From Steroidobacteraceae bacterium (lineage in GTDB: Bacteria > Pseudomonadota > Gammaproteobacteria > Steroidobacterales > Steroidobacteraceae), in NCBI GenBank assembly GCA_049687855.1, contig JBAVJR010000182.1:1-33763 (forward strand): a DNA stretch of 33,763 nucleotides, given 5' to 3'. The notes under the pieces were generated by a model. That model was not told the DNA's origin, made no database searches, and saw only the letters and a list, made by a program, of their open reading frames with translations. Shown here piece by piece: positions 3-19,792 of this stretch. Every line of letters starts with the position of its first letter. The stretch's first letter is position 1. Position numbers and translations under genes: made by a program.

Positions 3-710
3 CGCATTCCGGTCGCGGACGGCGAAATCCCTGCATATCGCGCCATGCCCGCCAAGGGCAAGCACTTCCCGGTCGTGCTGGTCGTGCAGGAGATCTTCGG
101 TGTGCACGAGCACATCAAGGACGTCTGCCGGCGCTTCGCGAAGCAGGGTTACTGTGCCATCGCTCCTGAACTCTATGCGCGCCAGGGCGACGTCTCGAAG
201 ATCAGCGACTGGAAGCAGATCTTCGCGGAAGTCGTCAACAAGGTGCCCGACGCCCAGGTGATGTCCGATCTCGACGCGGCTGCTGCCTGGGCCGTCAAGT
301 CGAGCAAGGGCGACGAGCGCAAGCTTGCCATCACCGGGTTTTGCTGGGGCGGCCGCATCACCTGGCTCTATGCCGCGCACAACAGGGATCTGAAGGCCGG
401 CGTCGCCTGGTACGGCCGCCTCAAAGGCGAGGCAACAGAGCTGCAGCCGAAGTACCCGCTCGATGTCGTCGCCGAGATCGACGCGCCGGTGCTGGGCCTG
501 TACGGCGGCAAGGACCAGGGTATTCCGCTGGCTGACGTCGAGGCCATGCGTGCCGCACTCAAAGCGGAGGACAAGCCGTCGGAGATCGTGGTGTACCCCG
601 AAGCGGGCCACGCGTTCCTCGCGGACTATCGGCCGAGCTATCGAGCGGACGACGCGGCGGCCGGCTGGGCTGCGTGCCTCGCGTGGTTGCGCAAGCACGG
701 CGTGGATTGA
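3..710 (+). CDS. Dienelactone hydrolase family protein (carboxymethylenebutenolidase-like), 5' end truncated by the window edge
   Basis: The frame is open from base 3 ([40 protein letters not shown]...), so the ATG at 45 is probably internal. A G-x-C-x-G nucleophile elbow is present (ITGFCWGG). Length and layout are typical of DLH. Stop TGA at 708-710. Confidence 0.85.
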
Positions 711-714
711 GGCG

Positions 715-3054
715 CTAGAACTTCCAGAGCACGCCGACCGAGGGCACGAGCGGCAGCCAATGCCGCAGTTCGCGGTCCAGCGTCGGCGTGCCATCGACGA
801 CGTCGTATTCAATGTCGGTGCAGCACGGGTTGCGCCTGTCGAATGCGTTGGTCACCTCGCCATGGACGGTCAATGTGCCGCGCGGCAGCGTCCATTCGTA
901 GCTCACGCGCGCGTCGACGGAACCGTAGTCGGCGTAGCGAGCCCCGTTGCGCTTGCCCTGCACCACGTTGCCTTGCGTATCGAGCGCGATCGGCGTGACA
1001 GGCCAGCCCGTGTGGAATTGCGCGGCGAGCGTCGCCTGCCACGGTCCGGACGACCAGAGCACGCCCGCGTTCAGGGTGTGCGTCTGGTCCCAGCTGCGTG
1101 TGACATCGCCACCGTCGACATCGTCGGTGACGCGGGACCACGCGTAACCGAACCAACCGCTCCACGCATCGACAGGTTTGCGGGTGAGCAGCAATTCGCC
1201 GCCCTCGGCCAGGGCCGATGACGGCGAGATGGCGACCCGGTCCCAGCGCAACTCGGGTGCCAGCGAGAGCGGGTCGTACAGGCTCTCGTAGCGCGTGCGC
1301 AGGTCATTGTAGCGCTTGCGGTAGGCCTCGACGCGCAGTGAATACCCGGGCGTCAGGTCCTGTTCGAGCCCGAGGATCAGGTGGTCCGCGCTCTGCGCAC
1401 GCGCGAACTCGTCGACGCCGTCCTCTACCGGCAGTTCCTCGATGCCCTGGTACTGCTGGTAACGGCCCCAGCTCGCCAGCAGGCGCGTACGGTCGCTGGC
1501 GCGCCACGCGAGATTCACGCGCGGCCCGAACTGGTCGTCGGAATCGGCGCCGTAGGTTTCCTCGTCCCAGCGCAGTCCGGCTTCGGCCGTGAGCGAGTCG
1601 GTCAGCTTGCCGCGCAACGTGTAGTACGCGGCGAAATGTTCGCCGGAGGGTTCCGGCTCGAGCGTGCGCGAAATGTCCTGCGCACCGGCGCCCGGGTAGG
1701 GATAGTCCGGCGCGAAGTCGACGCTGCCTGCGTAGTCGTAGGTGGCATCGAGCCTGCGCACGTCGATGCCGGCGCGCTGCAGCCAGCGGTCGGTCGTGTA
1801 GCTGGCATCGAGCTTGAGGCCCAGCACGTCATAGTCCCGCTCGTCGTCGACGGTGCCGACACGGCTGCCCGGTTCGAATACCTCGGCATTGCGCTCGGCA
1901 GATACGTCGGTGAACGACACCAGCGCCGTCGTGCTCAGTCGCTCGGACCAGCCATGCGTGAGCGTGCCCCAGACGTAGGCGTTCGAATACTCCGCGACCG
2001 CCTGCTCGGTGCCGGCCGAGTTCGTGATCTCGGCGTGATCGCTCGCGAGCAGCACGTGCAGACTGCCGCGTGTCGCGGGCGACCACTCGTAGTCGACGCG
2101 GCCGAATCCGTCGACGTATTTCGGTTCGCCGAGGTCCGAGTCCAGGATGCTCGCAACCTCGCCGAGATTGCTGCGGCGGACCGAGGCGAGCCACTGGCCG
2201 CGCCCGTCCGCGAACTTGTGCGAGGCGAGCGCGTTGGTGTGCATCAGGCTCAGGCCCAGCTCGTAATACGCAGCGGCCTCCGGCCTGAGCGAGCGCATGT
2301 CGATGATCGCGCTCATGCGGTCGCCGTACTCGGACGTGAATCCGCCCGCATAGACGTCGAGGCCATCGACGATCCGCTCGTCGAGCACGCTGGAGGGGCT
2401 CTGCAGCAGGCGGAGGTGAAACGGCTCGTAGAGCGGCAGCCCGTCCAGCAGGACTTGGGTTTCGTTGGCGTCGCCGCCGCGCATATGTGCGAGCCCGGCG
2501 AGCCCGTTGCTGGCGGCGCCCGGCAGGCGATGGACGGCCTTCAGCGCGTCCTCGGCCAGGCGTGGCAATGCCTCGAGTTCGTCCTGTGACAGGAAGGCAT
2601 GCACCTCCGGCACGTCGGAGGCAAGCGAATACCGGCTGGCCGTCACGACGACGTCAGCGATCAGTTCCTCGCGCGGATCGGTGGCGGGCAGCGGCCGCGC
2701 AGACGTGTCCTTCGATTCCTTTGCCGGGACGATCGAGTAAACGCGTCCCTCGATGCGCTGCAGTTTCAGTCCGAGCGGGGCGAGCACCTGCGCGATCGCC
2801 TCGAGCGCGGGCCCTGCCGTGAGTTCCGTGGCGACGGTCGCTGTCGCGGGAACGACGGCTGACGTGTAGACGAGCTGGACGTTGGCCACGGCGGCCAGCT
2901 CGTCGAGGACGGCATCGACGGAGCGTCCGCGATAAGGCGCAGCTGCCTGCACGGCGCTGACGCCCAGGCACGCAAGCAAGCCCACCGCGGCGCGGAGCGC
3001 GCGGTGCGGAGCGGTCGAAGCACGATGGGAAGGACGTGGCTGGCGGGTGGGCAT
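715..3054 (-). CDS. TonB-dependent outer-membrane receptor with an N-terminal STN signalling domain (FecA-type transducer)
   Basis: 779 aa with a signal peptide (..GLLACLGVSAVQAAAP). An N-terminal extension of about 80 aa resembling an STN domain (VDAVLDELAAVANVQLVY...RVYSIVP) precedes the plug region (ADVVVTASRY..., LRVLPG-like HRLPGAASNG, GGDANETQVLLDGLPLYEPFH). The beta-barrel end is a terminal aromatic residue (..VGVLWKF). Confidence 0.9.
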   Translation of the reverse strand: MPTRQPRPSHRASTAPHRALRAAVGLLACLGVSAVQAAAPYRGRSVDAVLDELAAVANVQLVYTSAVVPATATVATELTAGPALEAIAQVLAPLGLKLQRIEGRVYSIVPAKESKDTSARPLPATDPREELIADVVVTASRYSLASDVPEVHAFLSQDELEALPRLAEDALKAVHRLPGAASNGLAGLAHMRGGDANETQVLLDGLPLYEPFHLRLLQSPSSVLDERIVDGLDVYAGGFTSEYGDRMSAIIDMRSLRPEAAAYYELGLSLMHTNALASHKFADGRGQWLASVRRSNLGEVASILDSDLGEPKYVDGFGRVDYEWSPATRGSLHVLLASDHAEITNSAGTEQAVAEYSNAYVWGTLTHGWSERLSTTALVSFTDVSAERNAEVFEPGSRVGTVDDERDYDVLGLKLDASYTTDRWLQRAGIDVRRLDATYDYAGSVDFAPDYPYPGAGAQDISRTLEPEPSGEHFAAYYTLRGKLTDSLTAEAGLRWDEETYGADSDDQFGPRVNLAWRASDRTRLLASWGRYQQYQGIEELPVEDGVDEFARAQSADHLILGLEQDLTPGYSLRVEAYRKRYNDLRTRYESLYDPLSLAPELRWDRVAISPSSALAEGGELLLTRKPVDAWSGWFGYAWSRVTDDVDGGDVTRSWDQTHTLNAGVLWSSGPWQATLAAQFHTGWPVTPIALDTQGNVVQGKRNGARYADYGSVDARVSYEWTLPRGTLTVHGEVTNAFDRRNPCCTDIEYDVVDGTPTLDRELRHWLPLVPSVGVLWKF

Positions 3055-3134
3055 AGCTCTGCCCGAGTCGCCGCAGCGGCCGGACGCCGTGATGGTAGCC
3101 GAGTGCCGCCGACCCGCCTACCGTGGCATGCCGT

Positions 3135-4157
3135 TCAGCGGTTGGCACGCTCCACGCGAATCTGCCCACCTGCGATCTGTTGCCGCAGCCCCGGCTCCGA
3201 GGCGAATACGGCGGCGATCGCAGCTTCGGGCGCGAGGCCCGCTATCGATCCTTTCAGCTGCGTCGATTCGGCTTCAAGCGCGGCATCGGCCGAGGTATAG
3301 ACGATCTTGCGGCCCGTTTCGCGGCCTGCCCACGTGAGGAATTCGTCGAGCGAGCGTCCTGCGATGGAAAATTCGGGCGCGACGGACTCGGCCCAGCGCC
3401 ACGATTCGCCATACACGTCGAGCTGCCTGCGGCTCACCGCGCCATCGCGCGCGATCGTCAACGACTCACCGGCGCGAGCTAACGCGGGCATCTGGCCCTT
3501 GTCGATCGCAACGCTGCCTTCGCGCACGGCCACCTGCAGCATGTCGTCCCGGATCGAAGCGACGTATTGCGTGCCGAGGTGCCGCACGTCGCCGTAGGGC
3601 GTGCCGATCACGAACGCGGCATTGCCCGAGCCCGGTGCGCCCGCGTCGACGTAGACACTTCCCGTCGCGAGCGACGCGCGGTTGTCATTGTTGAATGCGA
3701 GTTGCGTGGCCGTATTGAGACGCACTCCGAGACCGTCAGGGCGACGCAACGCCACCCGGCCGGCAGCCTCCGTGCGGATTTCATCGCTGGCGGTGATGCT
3801 TGAACCCGCCGTCAGGGGCTGCCACGCGCCGTCGGCCGAATGACGAACGGCAGCCGCGCCGGAGACGCGGGCAACGGTGGCCACCGGGTCGCCCGCACCA
3901 ATCCACCGCGGCAACGCGATGCCAACCGCGATTGCGACCGTTGCGACCGACGCTGCCATCGCCATCCAGGGCTGCACGACGCGACGCCTCGCTGGTTGAC
4001 GGGCCGCGACCGTTGCGCGCCATTCAGCAGCAACCCTGGCGCGCACTTCAGCCGCGACATCCGCTGGCGGCTGCACGCGCGGACCGACTGCGCGCAGCAA
4101 AGCCGCGAGATCGGCGTCGTCGCCAGGTTGCCCGTGATTCTGTTCGTGATCGTTCAT
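3135..4157 (-). CDS. FecR-family transmembrane anti-sigma factor / sigma regulator
   Basis: The tracked ORF (3135..4457) overlaps the sigma gene in another frame. The internal ATG at 4155-4157 (MNDHEQNHGQ...) lies 10 nt after the sigma stop. Layout is a short cytoplasmic N-terminus, one TM segment (WMAMAASVATVAIAVGIAL), then a periplasmic FecR-like domain and C-terminal region (..FLTWAGRETGRKIVYTS..). Confidence 0.8.
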   Translation of the reverse strand: MNDHEQNHGQPGDDADLAALLRAVGPRVQPPADVAAEVRARVAAEWRATVAARQPARRRVVQPWMAMAASVATVAIAVGIALPRWIGAGDPVATVARVSGAAAVRHSADGAWQPLTAGSSITASDEIRTEAAGRVALRRPDGLGVRLNTATQLAFNNDNRASLATGSVYVDAGAPGSGNAAFVIGTPYGDVRHLGTQYVASIRDDMLQVAVREGSVAIDKGQMPALARAGESLTIARDGAVSRRQLDVYGESWRWAESVAPEFSIAGRSLDEFLTWAGRETGRKIVYTSADAALEAESTQLKGSIAGLAPEAAIAAVFASEPGLRQQIAGGQIRVERANR

Positions 4158-4167
4158 CGTTTCGTTC

Positions 4168-4791
4168 TCATGCCTCGAGGCTGGCGAGCACGTCGCCTGC
4201 CGACGCGCCGAACACGGCCTCCACCCCTTCCCTGAAAGCGATCCGGGCCCTTGCCAGCAGCGACTGCGCCGCCGTCTGGCCGATACCCAGCCGCTCGCCG
4301 ATCTCCTCGACCGAGCGGCCTTCGACGTATTTCCATTCCAGCGCTTCGCCGTACCGGCTGGGCAGCCGGTCGAGCACCGCGTGCACCAGGCGACCGAGCT
4401 CTGCGCGATCCGCGCCGTGCAGCGGGTCGTCGGTCGATGGCGCCGCAATGGACTCAAGCGCGGCCCGGACTTCCTCGCTGTCGTCGATCAGGGCGACCCT
4501 GGAGGAATAGCGACGCTCGCTGCGCACGTGATCGGCGATCTGCCGCCGGCAGATCTGGCACAGCCAGGTAAACAGCGCTGCCTCGCCGCGCCAGTCCCCG
4601 ACCGCGCGCATCGCCCGGATCAGCGTGGCCTGCACGACGTCCTTGGTGGCGTCGGCGTTGCGGTTCATGCGCGGCAGGGCAAAGCGGTAAACGCGCGGGA
4701 AATACGTCTCGAAGAAGGTCGTGAACGCGCGCTCGTCGCCGGCGAGCATCGCTGCGACCAGTTCGCGTTCTTCCTTCATCGGTCCGCCCAT
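4168..4791 (-). CDS. ECF (sigma-70 family, group 4) RNA polymerase sigma factor, FecI-like context
   Basis: A sigma region 2-like stretch is present (ERAFTTFFETYFPRVYRFALPRMNRNADATKDVVQATL...FTWLCQICRRQIADHVR), as is a region 4 HTH (LPSRYGEALEWKYVEGRSVEEIGERLGIGQTAAQSLLARAR). The true start may be the ATG at 4779 (MKEERE), which has GGCGGA a few nt upstream. The gene is immediately followed by the FecR and TonB-receptor genes. Confidence 0.88.
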   Translation of the reverse strand: MGGPMKEERELVAAMLAGDERAFTTFFETYFPRVYRFALPRMNRNADATKDVVQATLIRAMRAVGDWRGEAALFTWLCQICRRQIADHVRSERRYSSRVALIDDSEEVRAALESIAAPSTDDPLHGADRAELGRLVHAVLDRLPSRYGEALEWKYVEGRSVEEIGERLGIGQTAAQSLLARARIAFREGVEAVFGASAGDVLASLEA

Positions 4792-4994
4792 CGTTGCATG
4801 CGAGTAAGACGCGCCCGCGGCTGCAAATCAATCGCAGCTCGCCAATGGTCGTGGCCGGAAACCCTAGTGCATTGAAAGTAAACGGTTTTTACTGAATGCG
4901 ATTGATTTCCACGGCCACCGGCGTCTTACCGCCGTCCACGCAGCAAGGCAGGCTGCGACAACCCCCGGGAGCCGACTTGGAAGCCACCAACCTC
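4792..4994. promoter_or_regulatory. Divergent intergenic control region between the ECF sigma gene and the plus-strand five-gene operon
   Basis: This is the only conspicuously AT-rich stretch of the window (attgaaagtaaacggtttttactgaatgcgattgatttcc). It carries the inverted repeat listed separately. I could not identify a convincing -35/-10 pair by eye. Confidence 0.5.
4825..4908. repeat. Perfect 12-bp inverted repeat AAATCAATCGCA (4825-4836) / TGCGATTGATTT (4897-4908), arms 60 bp apart
   Basis: Read directly from the sequence: the two arms are exact reverse complements. One arm is proximal to the sigma gene and the other to the plus-strand operon. Each arm contains the tandem tetramer AATCAATC. 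Confidence 0.8.
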
Positions 4995-5669
4995 ATGATC
5001 GAAGCCCCGCGCAAGATGACGCTGCAGCAGCGGGCGGCCGACGAGCTGCGCACGCCGGGAGACAGGCTGCACCTGCACCCGGTTCGTGCCGGCGAAGCGG
5101 GCCGCGACGACCTCGAGGCCTATGTCCGCACCCGGTTCGCCGCCAAGCACGGCGCCGAAGTCCGTACGTTCATGCCCACGCTCATCTCGTTCCGTGACCG
5201 CCAGGGTGAGCTGCGCGGTGTCGCGGGCATCCGCGGTGCAGAAGAGAGTCGCCTGTACCTCGAGCAGTACCTCGACCGACCCATCGAAGAACGACTGGCG
5301 GCAGGGCTGCGTTCGCTTCCGGTCGATCGCGGCGGCGCGCGCGCTGTTCGGCGCGACGAAATCGTCGAAGTCGGCAACCTTGCCGGTGCCAGCTGTCGCG
5401 CCGCGGTGCGCATGGTGGCGCAGCTGCCTGTGTTCCTGATGAGCCAACGCTACTCGTGGATCGTCTTTACGGCCACCGGCGCGCTGCGCCAGATTCTCGA
5501 AGGCTTCGGCGCGCCGCTGATCGAGCTTGGCCGTGCCGATCCGTCGAGCGTCGCCACCGCGGCGGACTCCTGGGGCCGCTACTACGAGACCGATCCGCGC
5601 GTGTTTGCCGGTTACCTGCCCGATGCCGATCGGCTCGCCGGCTTTGCGCACAGGACGCCGGGTCACTGA
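4995..5669 (+). CDS. Thermostable-hemolysin family (T_hemolysin, GNAT-like fold) protein, putative acyltransferase
   Basis: The translation (..LHLHPVRAGEAGRDDLEAYVRTRFAAKHGAEVRTFMPTLISFRD..GELRGVAGIRGA..LYLEQYLDRPIEE..IVEVGNLAG..WIVFTATGALRQILEGFGAPLIELGRAD..WGRYYETDPRVFAGYL) matches my recollection of this roughly 200-230 aa family. The tracked ATG at 4896 lies inside the inverted repeat, so the ATG at 4995 (GGAAG upstream) is preferred. The stop overlaps the next start (TGATG at 5667-5671). Confidence 0.72.
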   Translation: MIEAPRKMTLQQRAADELRTPGDRLHLHPVRAGEAGRDDLEAYVRTRFAAKHGAEVRTFMPTLISFRDRQGELRGVAGIRGAEESRLYLEQYLDRPIEERLAAGLRSLPVDRGGARAVRRDEIVEVGNLAGASCRAAVRMVAQLPVFLMSQRYSWIVFTATGALRQILEGFGAPLIELGRADPSSVATAADSWGRYYETDPRVFAGYLPDADRLAGFAHRTPGH

Positions 5670-7150
5670 TGCTGCTGGATGCGCTGCGCTCCGCGCCTCC
5701 GGGCGCAATCGCTCTCGTCGACGGGCGACGCACGATTTCCTATGGCACCCTGCAGTCGCTGATCGAACGCGAGATCGAGTGGCTGCGACAGGGCGGCGCT
5801 GAGCGTCACGCCGTGCTGGCGGACAACGGCGTGCCGTGGGCGCTTGCCGACCTCGCGCTGCACGTCGGGGAAATGCTCTCGGTGCCGCTGCCGGGTTCCT
5901 TCACGCCCGCGCAGATGATCCATGCGCTCGACGATGCAGGAGTCGATGCGGTCCTCACCGATGACGACGCGCGCGCGCAGGCGCTCCTGCAGGGCTGGCG
6001 GATGGACGGCACCTCGCCGGTCTCTGGTCTGCACCGGTTCCGTCGGCAGCTCGACCTCGCGAGCCGGGCCGTTGCGCCTGCGGGCACGCGCAAGATTACA
6101 TACACCTCGGGCAGCACCTCGCACCCGAAGGGTGTGTGCCTCTCGGGCCCTGCGCTCGAGGCCATAGCGGAGTCCGTGACCTGCGCCACGCGCGAACTTC
6201 CTATCGATCGCCACCTCTGCATCCTGCCGCTCGCAACGTTGCTCGAAAACGTCGCGGGCCTGTACGCGCCCTTGTTGCGTGGCACAACGTGCATCGTGCC
6301 GCCGAGTACGGTCACGGGCATGAGCTACGGCGGCGTGGATGCGACCCGGTTGCTCGGGACGTTGTCGCGCGAGCAGCCCAACAGCCTGATCCTCGTGCCC
6401 GAACTGCTGCAGGTGCTGGTCTTCGCCGCCGAGCGTGGCTGGCAGCCGCCTGCCTCGCTGCAATTCGTTGCCGTGGGCGGCGCGAAGGTCTCGCGCGAGT
6501 TGCTCGCACGGGCTGACGCCGTCGGCATCCCTGTCTATGAAGGTTACGGTCTCAGCGAGTGCGCGTCGGTCGTTTGCCTTAACACGCCGGCAGCACGTCG
6601 CGCAGGTACCGTCGGCCGTCCATTGCCGCACGTGCGCGTGCGTGTCGATGCCTCCGGGCAAGTGCATGTCGCCGGCAACGCCATGCTTGGCTACCTTGGC
6701 GATGCGCCGCGCGCGCCGCTCGATGAAATCGCGACCGGTGACCTTGGGGTTCTTGATGCCGACGGGTACCTCCAGCTGCACGGTCGCATCGGCAATCGGT
6801 TCATCACCAGTTTTGGCCGCAATGTGTCGCCGGAATGGGTCGAGTGCGAAATCTCGCAGCGCCTCGCTGGCGGGCCGGTGCTGGTCTATGGTGAGTCACG
6901 GCCATACGCCGTTGCGCTCGTTGGAGCGTCCGCACAAGAAGCTCCCGACGCTGTCGTCGAAGCCGCCATCGACGCGGCGAATGCCGCACTGCCGAACTAC
7001 GCGCAGGTGCGCCACTGGGCGCGCGCCCCCGGTTCTTTCACGTCTGCCGACGGCACGCTGACGGCGAACGGTCGCCTGCGCCGCCAGGAAATTCATGCAC
7101 GTCTCGGTGCGCTGCTCGATGACCTCTATCGTGCAGAACTCGCATCCTGA
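5669..7150 (+). CDS. AMP-dependent synthetase/ligase (ANL adenylate-forming enzyme), stand-alone
   Basis: ANL core motifs are present: ITYTSGSTSHPKGV (A3), EGYGLSECASV (A5), ATGDLGVLDADGYLQLHGRIGNRFI (A7/A8). The start ATG at 5669 overlaps the upstream stop. The 5' part of the tracked ORF (5456-5668) is the out-of-frame tail of the preceding gene. Confidence 0.9.
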   Translation: MLLDALRSAPPGAIALVDGRRTISYGTLQSLIEREIEWLRQGGAERHAVLADNGVPWALADLALHVGEMLSVPLPGSFTPAQMIHALDDAGVDAVLTDDDARAQALLQGWRMDGTSPVSGLHRFRRQLDLASRAVAPAGTRKITYTSGSTSHPKGVCLSGPALEAIAESVTCATRELPIDRHLCILPLATLLENVAGLYAPLLRGTTCIVPPSTVTGMSYGGVDATRLLGTLSREQPNSLILVPELLQVLVFAAERGWQPPASLQFVAVGGAKVSRELLARADAVGIPVYEGYGLSECASVVCLNTPAARRAGTVGRPLPHVRVRVDASGQVHVAGNAMLGYLGDAPRAPLDEIATGDLGVLDADGYLQLHGRIGNRFITSFGRNVSPEWVECEISQRLAGGPVLVYGESRPYAVALVGASAQEAPDAVVEAAIDAANAALPNYAQVRHWARAPGSFTSADGTLTANGRLRRQEIHARLGALLDDLYRAELAS

Positions 7151-7170
7151 CCCATTTACGGAACCCATAG

Positions 7171-7863
7171 ATGCACCTGTACGAACAACTGCAGCGCGAC
7201 ACCGTCGCCGACCGTAACTATCTGCTGGCTGCTCCCGCGATCCAGCGCTCGCTCGCTGGCGACATTACCCGCGAGCTGTACATCGAGTTCCTGACGCAGG
7301 CCTACCATCACGTGCGTCATACCGTGCCGCTGATGATGGCCGTCGGCGCCCGCATCCCTGCGCGCTGCGCGTGGCTCCAGGAATCGATCCTGCACTACCT
7401 CGACGAGGAGCGGGGCCACGAGCAGTGGATCCTCAACGACATCGAGCATGCAGGCGGCGACCGCGCGGCCGCGGCGGCCTCGCAGCCGTCGCTCGCGACG
7501 GAATGCATGGTCGCGTACGCCTACGACACGATCCAGCGTCGCAACCCGCTCGGCTTCTTCGGCATGGTGTTCGTGCTCGAAGGGACCAGTGTCGCGCTGG
7601 CGCTCAACGCCGCCGACCGGATCAAGTCGACGCTGCAGCTGCCGACGCAGGCGTTCAGCTACCTGCGCAGTCATGGCGAGCTGGACCAGGAGCATGTCGG
7701 CGACCTCGAGAGCATTCTTGGCCGCCTGACGGACGCAGAAGATCGCGAGGCGGTCATCCGTTGCGCGAAGGGCGTGTTCTGGCTCTACGGCAACATGTTC
7801 CGGGGTCTCGAGGCCGACGTCGCCGCGAAGCGGGACGCTGCGCCGGTGAGGCTCAGCGCATGA
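7171..7863 (+). CDS. Heme-oxygenase-like diiron (HDO) / iron-containing redox enzyme family protein (TenA/PqqC/CADD-like fold)
   Basis: 230 aa and helical. The candidate ligand set has HDO-type spacing: E80-x2-H83 (DEERGHEQW), E137 (FVLEGTS), H168-x3-D172-x2-H175 (SHGELDQEH). Confidence 0.75.
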   Translation: MHLYEQLQRDTVADRNYLLAAPAIQRSLAGDITRELYIEFLTQAYHHVRHTVPLMMAVGARIPARCAWLQESILHYLDEERGHEQWILNDIEHAGGDRAAAAASQPSLATECMVAYAYDTIQRRNPLGFFGMVFVLEGTSVALALNAADRIKSTLQLPTQAFSYLRSHGELDQEHVGDLESILGRLTDAEDREAVIRCAKGVFWLYGNMFRGLEADVAAKRDAAPVRLSA

Positions 7864-8687
7864 AAGCCGCAGGGATGCGAGCGTTGATCACCGGTGCCAG
7901 CGGCGGCATCGGCCGCGCGCTGGCGCAGGAACTGCATGGCCGCGGTGCGAGCGTGCTGCTCGTGGGCCGGAATGAGCAGGCGCTTGCACGCGCGGCTCAG
8001 GAACTCGGCGGCCGTGCGGCGCGCGTCGACTGGTGTGCGGCCGATCTTGCGACAGCCGGCGGGCGCGCACGAGTGGTCGAAGCTGCGAGTCGCTGGGGCG
8101 GGAGCGGCATCAACGTGCTGGTCAACAACGCGGGTCTCGGCGATTTCGGCATGCTCGACGAACTCGACGATGCAGCGATCGAGCGGCTGTTTGCGATCAA
8201 CGCCATCGCGCCCATGCAGCTCACGCGGGCGCTCCTGCCGCAGCTGCGCTCGCAACCAATGGGCGCGATCCTCAATATCGGTTCGGTGTTCGGCAGCCTC
8301 GGCTATCCCGGGTTCACCGCGTACTCAGCCACGAAGTTCGCACTGCGCGGCTTCACCGAAGCATTGCGACGCGAGCTGGCCGACTCGACGATCGGCGTGC
8401 ACTACTTTGCGCCGCGCGCGACGAAGACCGGCATGAACGCATCGGCCGTCGACCGCATGAACGTCGAGCTGAAGGTTGCAATGGATCCGCCCGCCCAGGT
8501 GGCAGCGGCTGCCTGCGCCATGCTCGAGGCCGGCAAGACCAGCGCCGTCTTCGGCTGGCCCGAGAGACTGTTCGTCCGCCTCAACGCGCTGCTGCCGGGA
8601 GTCGTCGACGGCTCGCTCCGCAAGCAGCTTCCCGTCATCCGCCGACACGCTGCAGCCGCCGTCGCTGCGCGTGCGGCACAGTCCTGA
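7860..8687 (+). CDS. Short-chain dehydrogenase/reductase (classical SDR)
   Basis: The start ATG at 7860 overlaps the HDO stop (ATGA). SDR motifs are present: TGASGGIGRALA (TGxxxGxG), NNAG (LVNNAGLG), catalytic S...YSATK (YxxxK). The tracked ORF start at 7371 is an out-of-frame overlap with the HDO gene. Confidence 0.9.
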   Translation: MKAAGMRALITGASGGIGRALAQELHGRGASVLLVGRNEQALARAAQELGGRAARVDWCAADLATAGGRARVVEAASRWGGSGINVLVNNAGLGDFGMLDELDDAAIERLFAINAIAPMQLTRALLPQLRSQPMGAILNIGSVFGSLGYPGFTAYSATKFALRGFTEALRRELADSTIGVHYFAPRATKTGMNASAVDRMNVELKVAMDPPAQVAAAACAMLEAGKTSAVFGWPERLFVRLNALLPGVVDGSLRKQLPVIRRHAAAAVAARAAQS

Positions 8688-8696
8688 GGAGAAACC

Positions 8697-17098: not shown

Positions 17099-19792
17099 TC
17101 AGCTTTCGACGGCCTGCGTTTCCTTCGGCGGCACCGGCGAGAAATAGCCGATGGCGAGCAGCAGCACGCCGACGCCGAGAAATGCCACGATCCGGCCGAG
17201 GCCGCGCAGTTGCGACAGGTCGAAGAGGAACAGCTTCAGCACCACCACCCCGAGCAGCAGCGCACCGGCGAGCCAGGCGAGGCGCTGCGCGCGCCGTGCC
17301 GCCTGGAACATGACCGTCACCGCCAGGACCGACCAGAACACGGTCAGGGCGGTCTGGACGATCTGCGAATGCCACGTGGCTGGCGTGGCGAACGGCGTGC
17401 CCACCCAGTGGTGCAGCGCTCGCAGGAGCATGGCATTGGCCAGAACGAATCCCGTCAGGCCGAGCGCCACGGCGGCGCGGAACGACGCATCGGGCAGGGT
17501 GGACGCGAGTCCCGCGGCCAGCGCGGCCTTGTGCCATCGCCATAGCGTCCACAGCACGAACAGGCTCGCCAGCTCGAGCGGGTTCAGGATCGGCAAATAC
17601 AGCGGCAGTGCTGTGCTGCCGTCGCTGACGGCATTGGCGAGGAGCACGCCGAGCCACAGGGTGCCGACCAGCAGCGGCGCCGTGATCCGCAGGTGCATAC
17701 GGCCGTGGATGCCGAGCGGCCAACGCGACGTCGCCGACTGTTCGGTCAGCAGGAGCAGCACCGACGCCGGAACCAGCAGGCTCACGACGATCCGCCACGT
17801 GGCGGCGTCCGCGAACACTCGAGCGACGGCCCAGCGCGCCTCGATCGTCGCCAGCAACGTCACGAGGCCGACCGCGCCGGCATGCAGCCCCGGGGCGAGC
17901 CGGCGCATCAGCGCGCTGTCGTCTTCGTGTCGGTGCAGGAACCAGAGCAGCACTGCGAACGCTGCGGGCCACGCCACCGCGCCGCCACCAGCGGCGGGGT
18001 GTGCGAGTCCGTAGATTGCCAACTGCACGAACGCCAGCACGCAGAGTGCAGGCAGCAACAGCACAGGTGGGACTTGCGCGATTTCCCAGTCGAGCGCCCT
18101 GCGCAACTGCATCGATGCGGCCGCCGTCACTGCCGCCAGGCCGACCAGGGCCGCCGGGACATACGAATGCGGCGCGAAGTCATCGATCTCGTGGGCACCG
18201 CCTGCGACGAGGTAGGCGCAACCCAGCAGGTAGAGACCGTCGGACAGGTATTGCGCCAGACCCCTGTCCTGGATGGGCGCGAGTTGGCGTGCCGTGAATC
18301 CTGCCGCGAGCCCGAGCAGCAGGAACCCGAGACAGGTGCTGTTCAACAACGGCATCCGGGCTGGCGGCTCTTGCCAGTGCCAGAAGAACGCAATGGCCGC
18401 GAGACCCTGCAGCGCCACGCCAAACCATTGGGCCGGCCGCTGCCGTTGCCGCGTCGCGACCCATACGATCGCCGCTCCCTCGATGGCCCACAGTGCGGAG
18501 GTCGCCCGTGCATCGAAGTAGAGCGGGATCGCGAGCGTGCCGAAGCAGACGCCGATGGCCAGGAACGCGTCTGACAGCAAACGCATGCTCGGGTGCACGC
18601 TGCGCTGGCGCAGCGCGACAGCCAGGCCGAGGTAGATTGCAGCGAACAGAACCGCAGCCCCGGCCAGGCCGTTCTCCATGTCCTGCAGCAACGGCGCCAG
18701 CAGGCCGAACACCACCAGCGGCGTGCCGAAGACGATCGTGCCGTCGACGTAGTGCTGCAGTTCGATGGAACGGTGGCGCGCATAGAGCATGGCGATGCCG
18801 AGGTACTGGACGAAGAACGCGAGCAGGAACGGCCCCGTGCTCCAGAGGTGCTCGGGGCGGTAGGCGCTTGTGACCCACAGCAGTTGCAGCAGGAACGTGA
18901 ACGCGAACCCCAGCAGGTTGAGTGGTCGCCAAGTCTTCGCGAACGCCAGACCGAGCACTCCGAGGTTGAGCACGACGAAGTAGCCGAGCAGCAGCTGGAG
19001 GTTGCCGCTGCCGGTGGAAGCGAGAATGGGTGCTAGAAAACCGCCGGTCGTGCCGAGCATGGCGAGAGCGAGCGAGTCCTGCCGTACGGCGAGTGCGCCG
19101 GACACGGCGACGATCGCCAGCATCAGCGCGAAGGCCACGGTGGGCGGCAGCAGCCCGTACAGGCGGAACGCCGCGTAGATCGTAATGTAGAAGATGCCGA
19201 TGCCGCCGCCCTGCAGCGACAGCGCATAGCCCGGGCGACGCTCACGCAACCGCCAGCCGAGCAGCACCAGGCCGAGGCCGCCGAGGGCGGCACCGCCGAG
19301 GCGGGCTTCGATCGGGAACGTGTAGCGCTCCGCGACGAACTTCAGCAGGAACGCCACGCCGAAGAACAGGACGATCACGCCCGTGCGCACGAGCGTGTTG
19401 CCGCCCATGAACCACTGCAGCCAATGGGGCGAGCGGGTTGCGATGGACGGCGCCGGTGCGGGTGGCCACGGGCGGGCAGCCGGCGCCTCGGCCGCAGGCA
19501 CTGCCTTGCGGGTAATCGCGTTGGCCGCTGCCGCAGGTTCATCGATCGCAGCCGGCGTTGCCTGCGGCACGGGAACGGCGACGGGTTCCACGGGCGTCGT
19601 TGCGGCGGCCCCAGGCGCGGCAGCACGGGAGGCGAGCGCCTTGCGTTCGAGTTCGTGGACGCGAACCAGCAGTTGGCCGACTACCTGCTGCAGGTGCTGC
19701 AGCTGCTCGAAGGATTCGCGCTTCCACGCGCGCTCACGGTTGTACAGCGCGAAGAGCCCCGCGATCACGGCCAGCAGCAAGATCGACCCCAT
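17099..19792 (-). CDS. DUF2339-type large polytopic membrane protein, function unknown
   Basis: 897 aa with a strong RBS (AAGGAGG). Layout: N-terminal TM, coiled-coil-like segment (FEQLQHLQQVVGQLLVRVHELERK), Ala/Pro-rich linker, then more than 20 hydrophobic segments. The overall layout matches my recollection of DUF2339. Confidence 0.75.
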   Translation of the reverse strand: MGSILLLAVIAGLFALYNRERAWKRESFEQLQHLQQVVGQLLVRVHELERKALASRAAAPGAAATTPVEPVAVPVPQATPAAIDEPAAAANAITRKAVPAAEAPAARPWPPAPAPSIATRSPHWLQWFMGGNTLVRTGVIVLFFGVAFLLKFVAERYTFPIEARLGGAALGGLGLVLLGWRLRERRPGYALSLQGGGIGIFYITIYAAFRLYGLLPPTVAFALMLAIVAVSGALAVRQDSLALAMLGTTGGFLAPILASTGSGNLQLLLGYFVVLNLGVLGLAFAKTWRPLNLLGFAFTFLLQLLWVTSAYRPEHLWSTGPFLLAFFVQYLGIAMLYARHRSIELQHYVDGTIVFGTPLVVFGLLAPLLQDMENGLAGAAVLFAAIYLGLAVALRQRSVHPSMRLLSDAFLAIGVCFGTLAIPLYFDARATSALWAIEGAAIVWVATRQRQRPAQWFGVALQGLAAIAFFWHWQEPPARMPLLNSTCLGFLLLGLAAGFTARQLAPIQDRGLAQYLSDGLYLLGCAYLVAGGAHEIDDFAPHSYVPAALVGLAAVTAAASMQLRRALDWEIAQVPPVLLLPALCVLAFVQLAIYGLAHPAAGGGAVAWPAAFAVLLWFLHRHEDDSALMRRLAPGLHAGAVGLVTLLATIEARWAVARVFADAATWRIVVSLLVPASVLLLLTEQSATSRWPLGIHGRMHLRITAPLLVGTLWLGVLLANAVSDGSTALPLYLPILNPLELASLFVLWTLWRWHKAALAAGLASTLPDASFRAAVALGLTGFVLANAMLLRALHHWVGTPFATPATWHSQIVQTALTVFWSVLAVTVMFQAARRAQRLAWLAGALLLGVVVLKLFLFDLSQLRGLGRIVAFLGVGVLLLAIGYFSPVPPKETQAVES

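Follow-up and report, generated by a model that had tools for sequence, protein, structure and literature searches.

Cell-surface signalling (CSS) is understood almost entirely from the uptake of iron carriers, where a Fur-controlled sigma gene directs the expression of transport genes. A 33,763-nucleotide contig of a Steroidobacteraceae bacterium (GenBank assembly GCA_049687855.1, contig JBAVJR010000182.1; the window, by which we mean this whole stretch at its full length) carries the genes for an extracytoplasmic function (ECF) sigma factor, a FecR-type anti-sigma regulator and a TonB-dependent receptor with an STN signalling domain, placed head-to-head with a five-gene operon of biosynthetic appearance. 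This raises the questions of what such a trio controls and what it senses. The overall best explanation, to which we give a probability of about three in four, is that the three genes form a CSS-type module with an autoregulated sigma factor that has the divergent operon as its target.

The sigma factor, the FecR-type regulator and the receptor

The original prediction described the trio on the minus strand, and it was found there by Pfam searches, comparison with homologues, AlphaFold2 (AF2) modelling, Foldseek and direct comparison (BLASTP) with E. coli FecI, FecR and FecA. The sigma factor matches three Pfam models above threshold (Sigma70_r2/PF04542, 45.8 bits; r4_2/PF08281, 44.3 bits; Sigma70_ECF/PF07638, 41.7 bits) and scores 94 bits with TIGR02937 against a cutoff of 42.9. 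Its best NCBIfam models are generic ECF models, PRK11922 being matched with 102 bits, under its cutoff of 204. Identity is 26% to FecI over 149 amino acids and 42-100% (median 79%) to the orthologues. Translation probably starts at the second ATG (4779) and not at 4791, because of the conservation seen in the alignment of upstream regions and because the modal distance from the promoter motif described below to the start codon is 25 nt.

The gene for the FecR-type regulator follows the sigma stop codon after a gap of 10 nt. The protein has a short cytoplasmic N-terminus, a hydrophobic segment at residues ~62-84 (read from the sequence) and a periplasmic FecR domain (residues 125-216), and is 28% identical to E. 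coli FecR over 119 amino acids. E. coli FecR has a self-cleavage site at Gly181-Thr182 (PMC9249621), and G195-T196 of the regulator aligns with this bond as a predicted cleavage site. The last 92 residues, where a C-terminal STN-like domain is expected, gave no Pfam match.

The receptor gene lies 80 bp (3055-3134) beyond fecR and encodes a protein made up of a signal peptide, an STN signalling domain, a TonB-box-like stretch, a plug and a beta-barrel with the C-terminus ...VLWKF. Its homologues carry PF00593/PF07715; the receptor itself has no Pfam barrel match, and comparison of its profile with solved structures gave only a weak match, to Cir. The AF2 model, built on 27 orthologues, has a pLDDT (predicted local distance difference test) of 69 overall, with a confident barrel and a confident N-terminal alpha/beta domain (residues 41-110), the STN segment reaching 74-87. 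When the model was compared with solved structures by Foldseek, the top matches were full-length signalling transporters, namely FpvA (2o5p, E 8e-22), FoxA and FecA, with about 843 columns aligned. The receptor is 24% identical to E. coli FecA across signal peptide, STN domain and plug. Within the STN domain Y41, G43, L61, Y63, P69, E77, L96 and Y106 are invariant or near-invariant in the 27 orthologues. V136 in the TonB-box-like stretch is near-invariant and S140, R141 and Y142 just after it are invariant; the stretch itself, IADVVVTA, resembles the BtuB-type box, DTLVVTA. As judged from sequence and structural model, the trio comprises the components of a FecIRA-type CSS module.

The receptor family is very distant in sequence from all solved transporters. 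An invariant Cys-Cys pair (C744 and C745, in NPCCTD; region 742-745) lies near the C-terminal end of the barrel.

Conservation of the eight-gene layout

The conservation sample came from a genome scan anchored on the first protein of the operon, a member of PF12261, which gave 80 species-representative loci with 10-kb flanks. These were annotated by tblastn with the window proteins as queries, and layout was counted in the 72 loci that have at least 5.3 kb of upstream sequence. The closest relatives of the window are Steroidobacteraceae and unclassified gammaproteobacterial metagenome-assembled genomes. Out of the 72 loci, 53 have the receptor, FecR and sigma genes directly diverging from the operon, 2 have a partial arrangement and 17 have none. 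In the trio-bearing loci the lowest identities to the window proteins are 42% for the sigma factor, 27% for FecR and 31% for the receptor. The receptor gene is flanked in the window by a dienelactone-hydrolase (DLH) gene, and this flank is kept in 35 of the 55 trio-bearing loci; because it is missing from the other 20, the eight-gene block outlasts its surroundings. The original prediction had proposed looking for the trio and the operon together in related genomes, and the pairing is indeed conserved, including in these 20 loci with a differing outer flank. On metagenome contigs reached via a sigma orthologue, independent gene calls give the same layout, and one 3.1-Mb chromosome (OY970244.1) carries the whole eight-gene block twice (L030 and L049).

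The operon has a wider distribution than the trio. It is also found in Steroidobacter, Peristeroidobacter, Pseudomonas and a betaproteobacterium, with unrelated neighbours, and in 16 of the 72 loci no receptor lies within 10 kb of it; every Pseudomonas locus that has enough upstream sequence is among these. The exception is L066, in which neither sigma nor FecR is present but a 43%-identical STN-bearing receptor directly precedes the operon on the same strand; this lends weak support to a direct link between receptor and product.

A duplicated promoter motif in the divergent spacer

The sigma gene had been placed about 200 bp from the start of the operon, a figure that agrees with the true spacer length of 185-197 bp, obtained with corrected gene starts, and that the coordinates given along with it (104 bp) do not yield. 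The first gene of the operon starts at TTG 4977, preceded by the ribosome-binding site GGGAG, and not at ATG 4896, because its homologues are about 230 amino acids long.

We searched the window with the pattern GATTGATT-N10-18-CGTC. This led to two matches in the whole 33.7 kb, where 0.03 would be expected, and both lie in the spacer as inverted copies, one predicted ECF promoter facing sigma-fecR-receptor and the other facing the operon. The head-to-head arrangement noted in the original prediction is matched by predicted promoter copies that point both ways. Alignment of the spacers of 23 diverse loci shows two near-invariant blocks amid diverged sequence: the plus-strand block reads CGATTGATTT, 13 nt, CGTCT(T/A)AC, and the sigma-proximal block is its reverse complement. 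In all, the 80 loci and the window hold 135 motif sites, with a spacer of 14 nt in 128 and of 13 nt in 7; shuffled sequence held no motif sites. Almost every trio-bearing locus has both copies, and the Acidibacter loci, whose sigma factor is only 42% identical, have slight variants of both. How far apart the two copies lie differs between loci, from an overlap to some 150 bp, but each copy keeps a promoter-like distance to the gene that it faces, about 25 nt in the case of the sigma gene and about 50 nt in that of the operon.

The usual hallmark of an autoregulated ECF promoter is a two-part element of constant spacing with a CGTC -10, one copy of which stands before the sigma gene. Because the motif has each of these properties, we infer that the sigma factor transcribes both sigma-fecR-receptor and the divergent operon. 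The regulatory coupling, in which an autoregulated sigma factor would drive the operon, is strongly supported at the level of sequence. The 80-bp gap ahead of the receptor gene contains no copy of the motif, and the receptor is therefore probably co-transcribed with sigma and fecR. A separate receptor promoter was considered and rejected, as the gap has no motif and positions 600-9600 have no sigma-70-like promoter. In the Pseudomonas and betaproteobacterial loci, which are without the trio, there is no motif upstream of the operon, as this coupling would lead one to expect.

Two further features of such spacers were observed. In L030 a second, near-identical divergent motif pair (15635 on the minus strand, 15716 on the plus strand) lies beside an LtaS-like gene (15874-17796), as if the promoter region had been duplicated locally. 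In the window, which has a G+C content of 66-70%, the centre of the spacer (4840-4895) forms an AT-rich island (..CCCTAGTGCATTGAAAGTAAACGGTTTTTACTGAATG..), the genome as a whole having 67% G+C. It contains a TAAC-N4-5-TTGA pattern that is conserved in at least 75% of the 23 aligned loci and could be a basal promoter or a site for a second regulator; this AT-rich centre has no Fur box match and no sigma-70 consensus promoter.

The reading of the locus as a CSS-type trio with an autoregulated sigma factor and the operon as its target thus builds on observed gene content, an observed and conserved layout and a promoter motif that is both duplicated and conserved. Several points weigh against it. 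In the Pfam searches the Plug (23.0 bits, cutoff 23.9) and STN (21.5 bits, cutoff 28.4) matches of the receptor are both sub-threshold, and the plug of the receptor model has a pLDDT below 50. We nevertheless regard the identity of the receptor as settled despite weak Pfam matches, because of the domains of its homologues, the domains in the AF2 model and the Foldseek ranking. As a separate observation, the plug region (residues 139-256) is highly conserved in sequence and has many invariant residues despite the low pLDDT. The layout departs from textbook Fec, with a motif before the sigma gene, none before the receptor gene and no Fur box found. The motif also precedes the operon in six genomes that have no trio within 10 kb (L050, L061, L062, L064, L065 and L067), so that adjacency of the trio is not obligatory. 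This suggests that in these six Steroidobacteraceae genomes the sigma factor is encoded elsewhere. A further point is that another ECF sigma factor or some other regulator could bind the motif. The search with the sigma protein gave only orthologues of at least 80% identity, and did not reach the motif-bearing Steroidobacter and Peristeroidobacter genomes.

An alternative to regulatory coupling is that the adjacency is inherited synteny without regulatory meaning and the repeated motif the operator of another regulator, which is very improbable: the trio loci do all come from a single lineage at family level (Steroidobacteraceae and relatives), often with the DLH flank kept as well, but the motif consists of two parts at a fixed distance of 14 nt and has the CGTC typical of ECF -10 regions, each copy stands at promoter distance from a gene start even as the distance between copies varies, one copy precedes the sigma gene itself, and the block survives changes of its flank and has been duplicated as a block.

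The five-gene operon

The first product of the operon belongs to the PF12261 'thermostable hemolysin' family. Its AF2 model (pLDDT 78) has a GNAT fold, for which Foldseek returned FeeM (2g0b, E 1.1e-6) as the top match, followed by TofI, LasI, MesI, RpaI and BjaI, with TM scores of 0.5-0.65. The PF12261 profile has no sequence-level similarity to solved structures, FeeM and the acyl-homoserine lactone (AHL) synthases included. By the fold of its model the protein is thus like an N-acyl amino acid/AHL-synthase-type acyltransferase. The second gene encodes an acyl-AMP/CoA ligase whose nearest solved relatives are MenE, oxalate-CoA ligase and FadD13. The third encodes a haem-oxygenase-like diiron oxidase (HDO) in which E-x-x-H and D-x-x-H motifs can be read from the sequence; the sole related solved structure, 3dde from Shewanella, is a structural-genomics protein without known function. 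A short-chain dehydrogenase/reductase (SDR) follows, whose start overlaps the HDO stop by 4 nt, and the last gene encodes a secreted TPR protein with an N-terminal signal peptide. Because the genes downstream are convergent (an RluA-like gene and an SDR gene on the minus strand), the operon ends at 9359.

The FeeM/AHL-synthase-like fold and the neighbouring acyl-CoA/AMP ligase point to an N-acylated product, tailored by the HDO and the SDR. Judged from these models and neighbours, the most likely product of the operon is a small molecule or lipid that is N-acylated and oxidatively tailored. The TPR protein has a weak NCBIfam match (51 bits, cutoff 350) to BstC, an outer-membrane sterol-transport protein, a similarity by which it may carry a hydrophobic product across the periplasm.

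In the literature that we searched, no paper was found on the five-gene operon, on PF12261, or on PF12261 or an N-acyl amino acid synthase paired with an HDO; nor was any found that links thermostable hemolysin to ECF/TonB systems, or CSS to phosphoethanolamine transferase. The 'delta-VPH' papers name the hemolysin gene as a virulence marker only. The five-gene cassette is conserved far beyond Steroidobacteraceae, at 40-56% identity, in Pseudomonas spp. (L075-L080) and a betaproteobacterium (L078), and appears to be a widespread, uncharacterised cassette.

Other genes preceded by the motif

Copies of the motif also stand before genes of other kinds. Among the 80 loci they precede EptA/B-like phosphoethanolamine transferases (L054, L057, L066), LtaS-like sulfatase-family membrane proteins (L030, L043, L054), TlpA-like redoxins (L062, L067, L070) and Omp85/POTRA genes (L066, L043). 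In L066 genes for PAP2 and cytochrome b561 come next. Putative targets of the motif lie at 14250-19223 in L066, 1199-4907 in L043, 4023-5687 and 15118-17109 in L054, 3957-5642 in L057 and 14392-14919 in L062. In L043 fecR and the receptor gene are separated by inserted LtaS-like and Omp85 genes, each of which has a motif copy of its own. Before these recurrent targets the motif lies 25-35 nt from the start codon.

A metagenome scan for the exact promoter motif led to the identification of 152 sites on 120 contigs. By gene, 36 of them belong to sigma genes, 33 to the operon, 11 to LtaS-like genes, 8 to redoxins, 4 to multihaem cytochromes, 3 to EptA-like genes, 3 to flavin monooxygenases and 2 to cytochrome c/PKD proteins. 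For most of the secreted multihaem cytochromes (MtrC-like), the cytochrome c/PKD proteins and one Cys-rich secreted protein the motif lies 27-37 nt before the start; the range is wider, 8-168 nt, before the flavin monooxygenases and at one multihaem site (metagenome loci L089, L114, L098, L146, L117, L153, L110, L151, L176, L137 and L140). Singletons (ArnT-like/PMT_2, LAB_N, GT9, DUF2282 and hits on low-GC contigs) were left out of the regulon, since in so large a collection an 18-base pattern may be matched by chance. Inside the window there are no motif targets beyond the two already described. On these sequence matches, the regulon in the wider lineage looks aimed at the envelope and the periplasm.

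Proposed mechanism and nature of the ligand

In our model, which is inferred as regards the chemistry, the proteolytic steps and the ligand in every respect, a ligand would bind the TonB-dependent transducer at the outer membrane, and the STN domain of the receptor would pass this on to the periplasmic portion of the FecR-type regulator. The regulator, with its Gly-Thr self-cleavage site, would then presumably be degraded, and the ECF sigma factor would thereby be freed or activated. It would direct RNA polymerase to GATTGATT-N14-CGTCT(T/A)A promoters, of which the window has exactly two, back to back. Transcription from one of them would give sigma-fecR-receptor, a positive autoregulation, and from the other the five-gene operon, whose acyl-AMP/CoA ligase would feed the FeeM/LuxI-like N-acyltransferase, whose HDO and SDR would tailor the product, and whose secreted TPR protein would handle it in the periplasm.

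What this ligand might be is a question on which the evidence is divided. The answer that survives best, at somewhat less than an even chance, is that it comes from outside, as a foreign chelate, a metal species or a compound of a competitor or host, and that the operon is among the outputs of a response directed at the envelope. The product would then be an N-acyl lipid of the membrane or surface, made alongside lipid A and other envelope modifications, to which we likewise give a little under even odds. The recurrence of the motif before LtaS-like, redoxin, EptA/B-like, Omp85/POTRA-PAP2 and multihaem cytochrome genes argues for such a response, as does L043 with its motif-bearing LtaS-like and Omp85 genes inside the trio. 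It is also consistent with an operon that stands without a receptor in other lineages and has as its last gene a periplasmic, weakly BstC-like TPR protein. Set against this, the window holds none of the extra targets and single metagenome hits may be due to chance. An outside ligand would not call for so tight and nearly universal a pairing of receptor and operon, and L066 argues for a direct tie between the two.

The original prediction proposed that the product of the operon, or its metal complex, may be the ligand that the receptor imports and senses, and that the whole block would then be a self-contained locus to produce, sense and import a metallophore or signal. Spelled out, this means that an exported metallophore (or signal) would bind metal, be recognised and imported by the receptor and induce its own synthesis, as pyoverdine does. 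In its favour, receptor and operon are linked in the 53 genomes described above, L066 has its STN receptor directly upstream of the operon, and HDOs can make N-oxygenated metal-binding groups. A sigma factor that drives both itself and a biosynthetic operon would give the positive feedback expected of self-sensing. There is also a precedent in FpvI and PvdS, which start transcription of the genes for pyoverdine synthesis and transport (PMC9249621).

Most of what we found speaks against this proposal all the same. In the search for a Fur/Zur box, the spacers of the window and 57 related loci were scored against the 19-bp Fur consensus; the best Fur-box-like site reaches 10/19 in the window and 10-12/19 over these 58 spacers, equal to shuffles, and iron control at the spacer was rejected for this reason. 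The block has no inner-membrane importer, exporter or reductase, and no such importer or exporter is encoded between 45 and 11799. An OPT transporter (11777-13819) was rejected as the missing importer because it is encoded on the opposite strand and many loci with the eight-gene block lack it. Known siderophore enzymes, such as non-ribosomal peptide synthetases (NRPS) and NRPS-independent synthetases (NIS) of the IucA/IucC type or similar, are missing from the domains of the operon (PF12261, AMP-binding, PF14518, SDR, TPR), whose first enzyme instead resembles N-acyl amino acid/AHL synthases. In Pseudomonas, a betaproteobacterium and several Steroidobacter or Peristeroidobacter genomes the operon is found by itself, and the nearest 10 kb contain no receptor gene. 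Finally, the motif precedes envelope-modifying and redox genes as well. Hence neither import of a metallophore as the ligand of the receptor nor a self-contained locus was upheld; an iron-siderophore role is unlikely, and the wider proposal of an exported metallophore or signal is doubtful. A self-produced ligand, whatever its nature, we consider possible but rather unlikely.

A more specific form of self-sensing would be an autoinduction circuit in which CSS replaces a LuxR-type receptor: a secreted N-acylated signal, possibly metal-binding and made by the FeeM/LuxI-like enzyme together with the CoA ligase, the HDO and the SDR, would be sensed by the transducer and, by way of FecR and the ECF sigma factor, would induce its own synthesis, the sensor and, in relatives, envelope and redox genes. 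We rate this circuit as improbable.

Genes downstream of the operon

A 756-amino-acid open reading frame (9529-11799) was considered as a sixth gene of the operon and rejected, as its first ~460 codons are a wrong-frame, high-GC artefact over two minus-strand genes. The real gene within it, for an alpha/beta hydrolase, and the two minus-strand genes are listed in Table 1.

Table 1 Features of the trio, the divergent spacer, the operon and the downstream region, with positions in the window.
Feature	Position	Strand	Evidence or remark
TonB-dependent transducer, 779 aa	715..3054	(-)	homologue domains, AF2, Foldseek
TonB-box-like stretch IADVVVTA, residues 132-139, plug start	2638..2661	(-)	read from translation
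Receptor STN domain, residues ~41-110	2725..2934	(-)	PF07660 match 1-52/52, E 2e-4
FecR-type anti-sigma/sigma regulator, 340 aa	3135..4157	(-)	PF04773 50.8 bits
Gly195-Thr196 of FecR-type regulator	3570..3575	(-)	BLASTP alignment HLGTQ vs ALGTE
ECF sigma factor	4168..4791, probable start ATG 4779 (203 aa)	(-)	Pfam, TIGR02937
Predicted ECF promoter facing sigma-fecR-receptor	4805..4833	(-)	GATTGATT 4833-4826, 14-nt spacer, CGTCTTA 4811-4805
Predicted ECF promoter facing operon	4900..4928	(+)	GATTGATT 4900-4907, 14-nt spacer, CGTCTTA 4922-4928
PF12261 'thermostable hemolysin' family protein, 230 aa, GNAT fold	4977..5669	(+)	PF12261 166 bits
Acyl-AMP/CoA ligase	5669..7150	(+)	PF00501 156 bits; ATG overlaps preceding stop (TGATG)
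Haem-oxygenase-like diiron oxidase (HDO)	7171..7863	(+)	PF14518 102.5 bits
Short-chain dehydrogenase/reductase (SDR)	7860..8687	(+)	PF00106 168 bits; NF006565 338 bits
Secreted TPR protein, N-terminal signal peptide, last operon gene	8697..9359	(+)	TPR families
RluA-like pseudouridine synthase	9340-10320	(-)	convergent with operon
SDR	10107-10880	(-)	
Alpha/beta hydrolase, ~297 aa	~10906-11799	(+)	real gene within ORF 9529-11799

Comparison with known systems

What is new here is that the same three CSS parts are apparently wired differently, and that this wiring is conserved widely in uncultured Steroidobacteraceae from soil and wastewater: the sigma factor is predicted to be self-amplifying, no iron box was found, the main target would be a biosynthetic operon and the further targets envelope genes. 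The promoter (GATTGATT-N14-CGTCTaA) is sharply defined, and consequently the regulon can be predicted from sequence and the circuit is testable. It could also serve as a regulatory handle for activating an orphan five-gene operon that is found as far as Pseudomonas, and so lead towards identification of the product.

The trio is like E. coli FecI/FecR/FecA in having the same three parts in the same gene order, an aligned Gly-Thr bond and a transporter with a signalling domain. It shares only 24-28% identity with the Fec proteins, over partial lengths. In the Fec system fecIR is under Fur repression without autoregulation, and the genes that FecI drives are the transport genes fecABCDE (PMC9249621). 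In contrast, the locus described here has no inner-membrane transport genes and its second target would be the biosynthetic operon.

The closest functional analogue is P. aeruginosa FpvA/FpvR with PvdS and FpvI, in which a transducer/anti-sigma pair controls both biosynthetic and receptor genes, and FpvA is also the best structural match to the receptor model. The pyoverdine system has an NRPS, Fur control and two sigma factors for one anti-sigma factor, whereas here we find one sigma factor, no NRPS or NIS and no Fur box, and the motif points to extra envelope targets. The same three-part logic across the envelope is used for non-iron outputs by Ralstonia PrhA/PrhR/PrhI, P. aeruginosa VreA/VreR/VreI and the SusC-like/anti-sigma/ECF systems of Bacteroidetes, which control virulence or glycan-utilisation genes. 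We know of no non-iron CSS system that drives an N-acyltransferase/HDO operon or lipid A modifying genes.

On the side of the operon, the PF12261 protein differs from FeeM and the AHL synthases in having no sequence-level similarity to them, and nothing comparable to its coupling with an HDO, an SDR and a TPR protein is described in the literature searched. By its fold, it is nonetheless like FeeM and the LuxI-type and CoA-dependent AHL synthases, and the adjacent ligase fits a CoA-dependent acyl donor such as RpaI and BjaI use.

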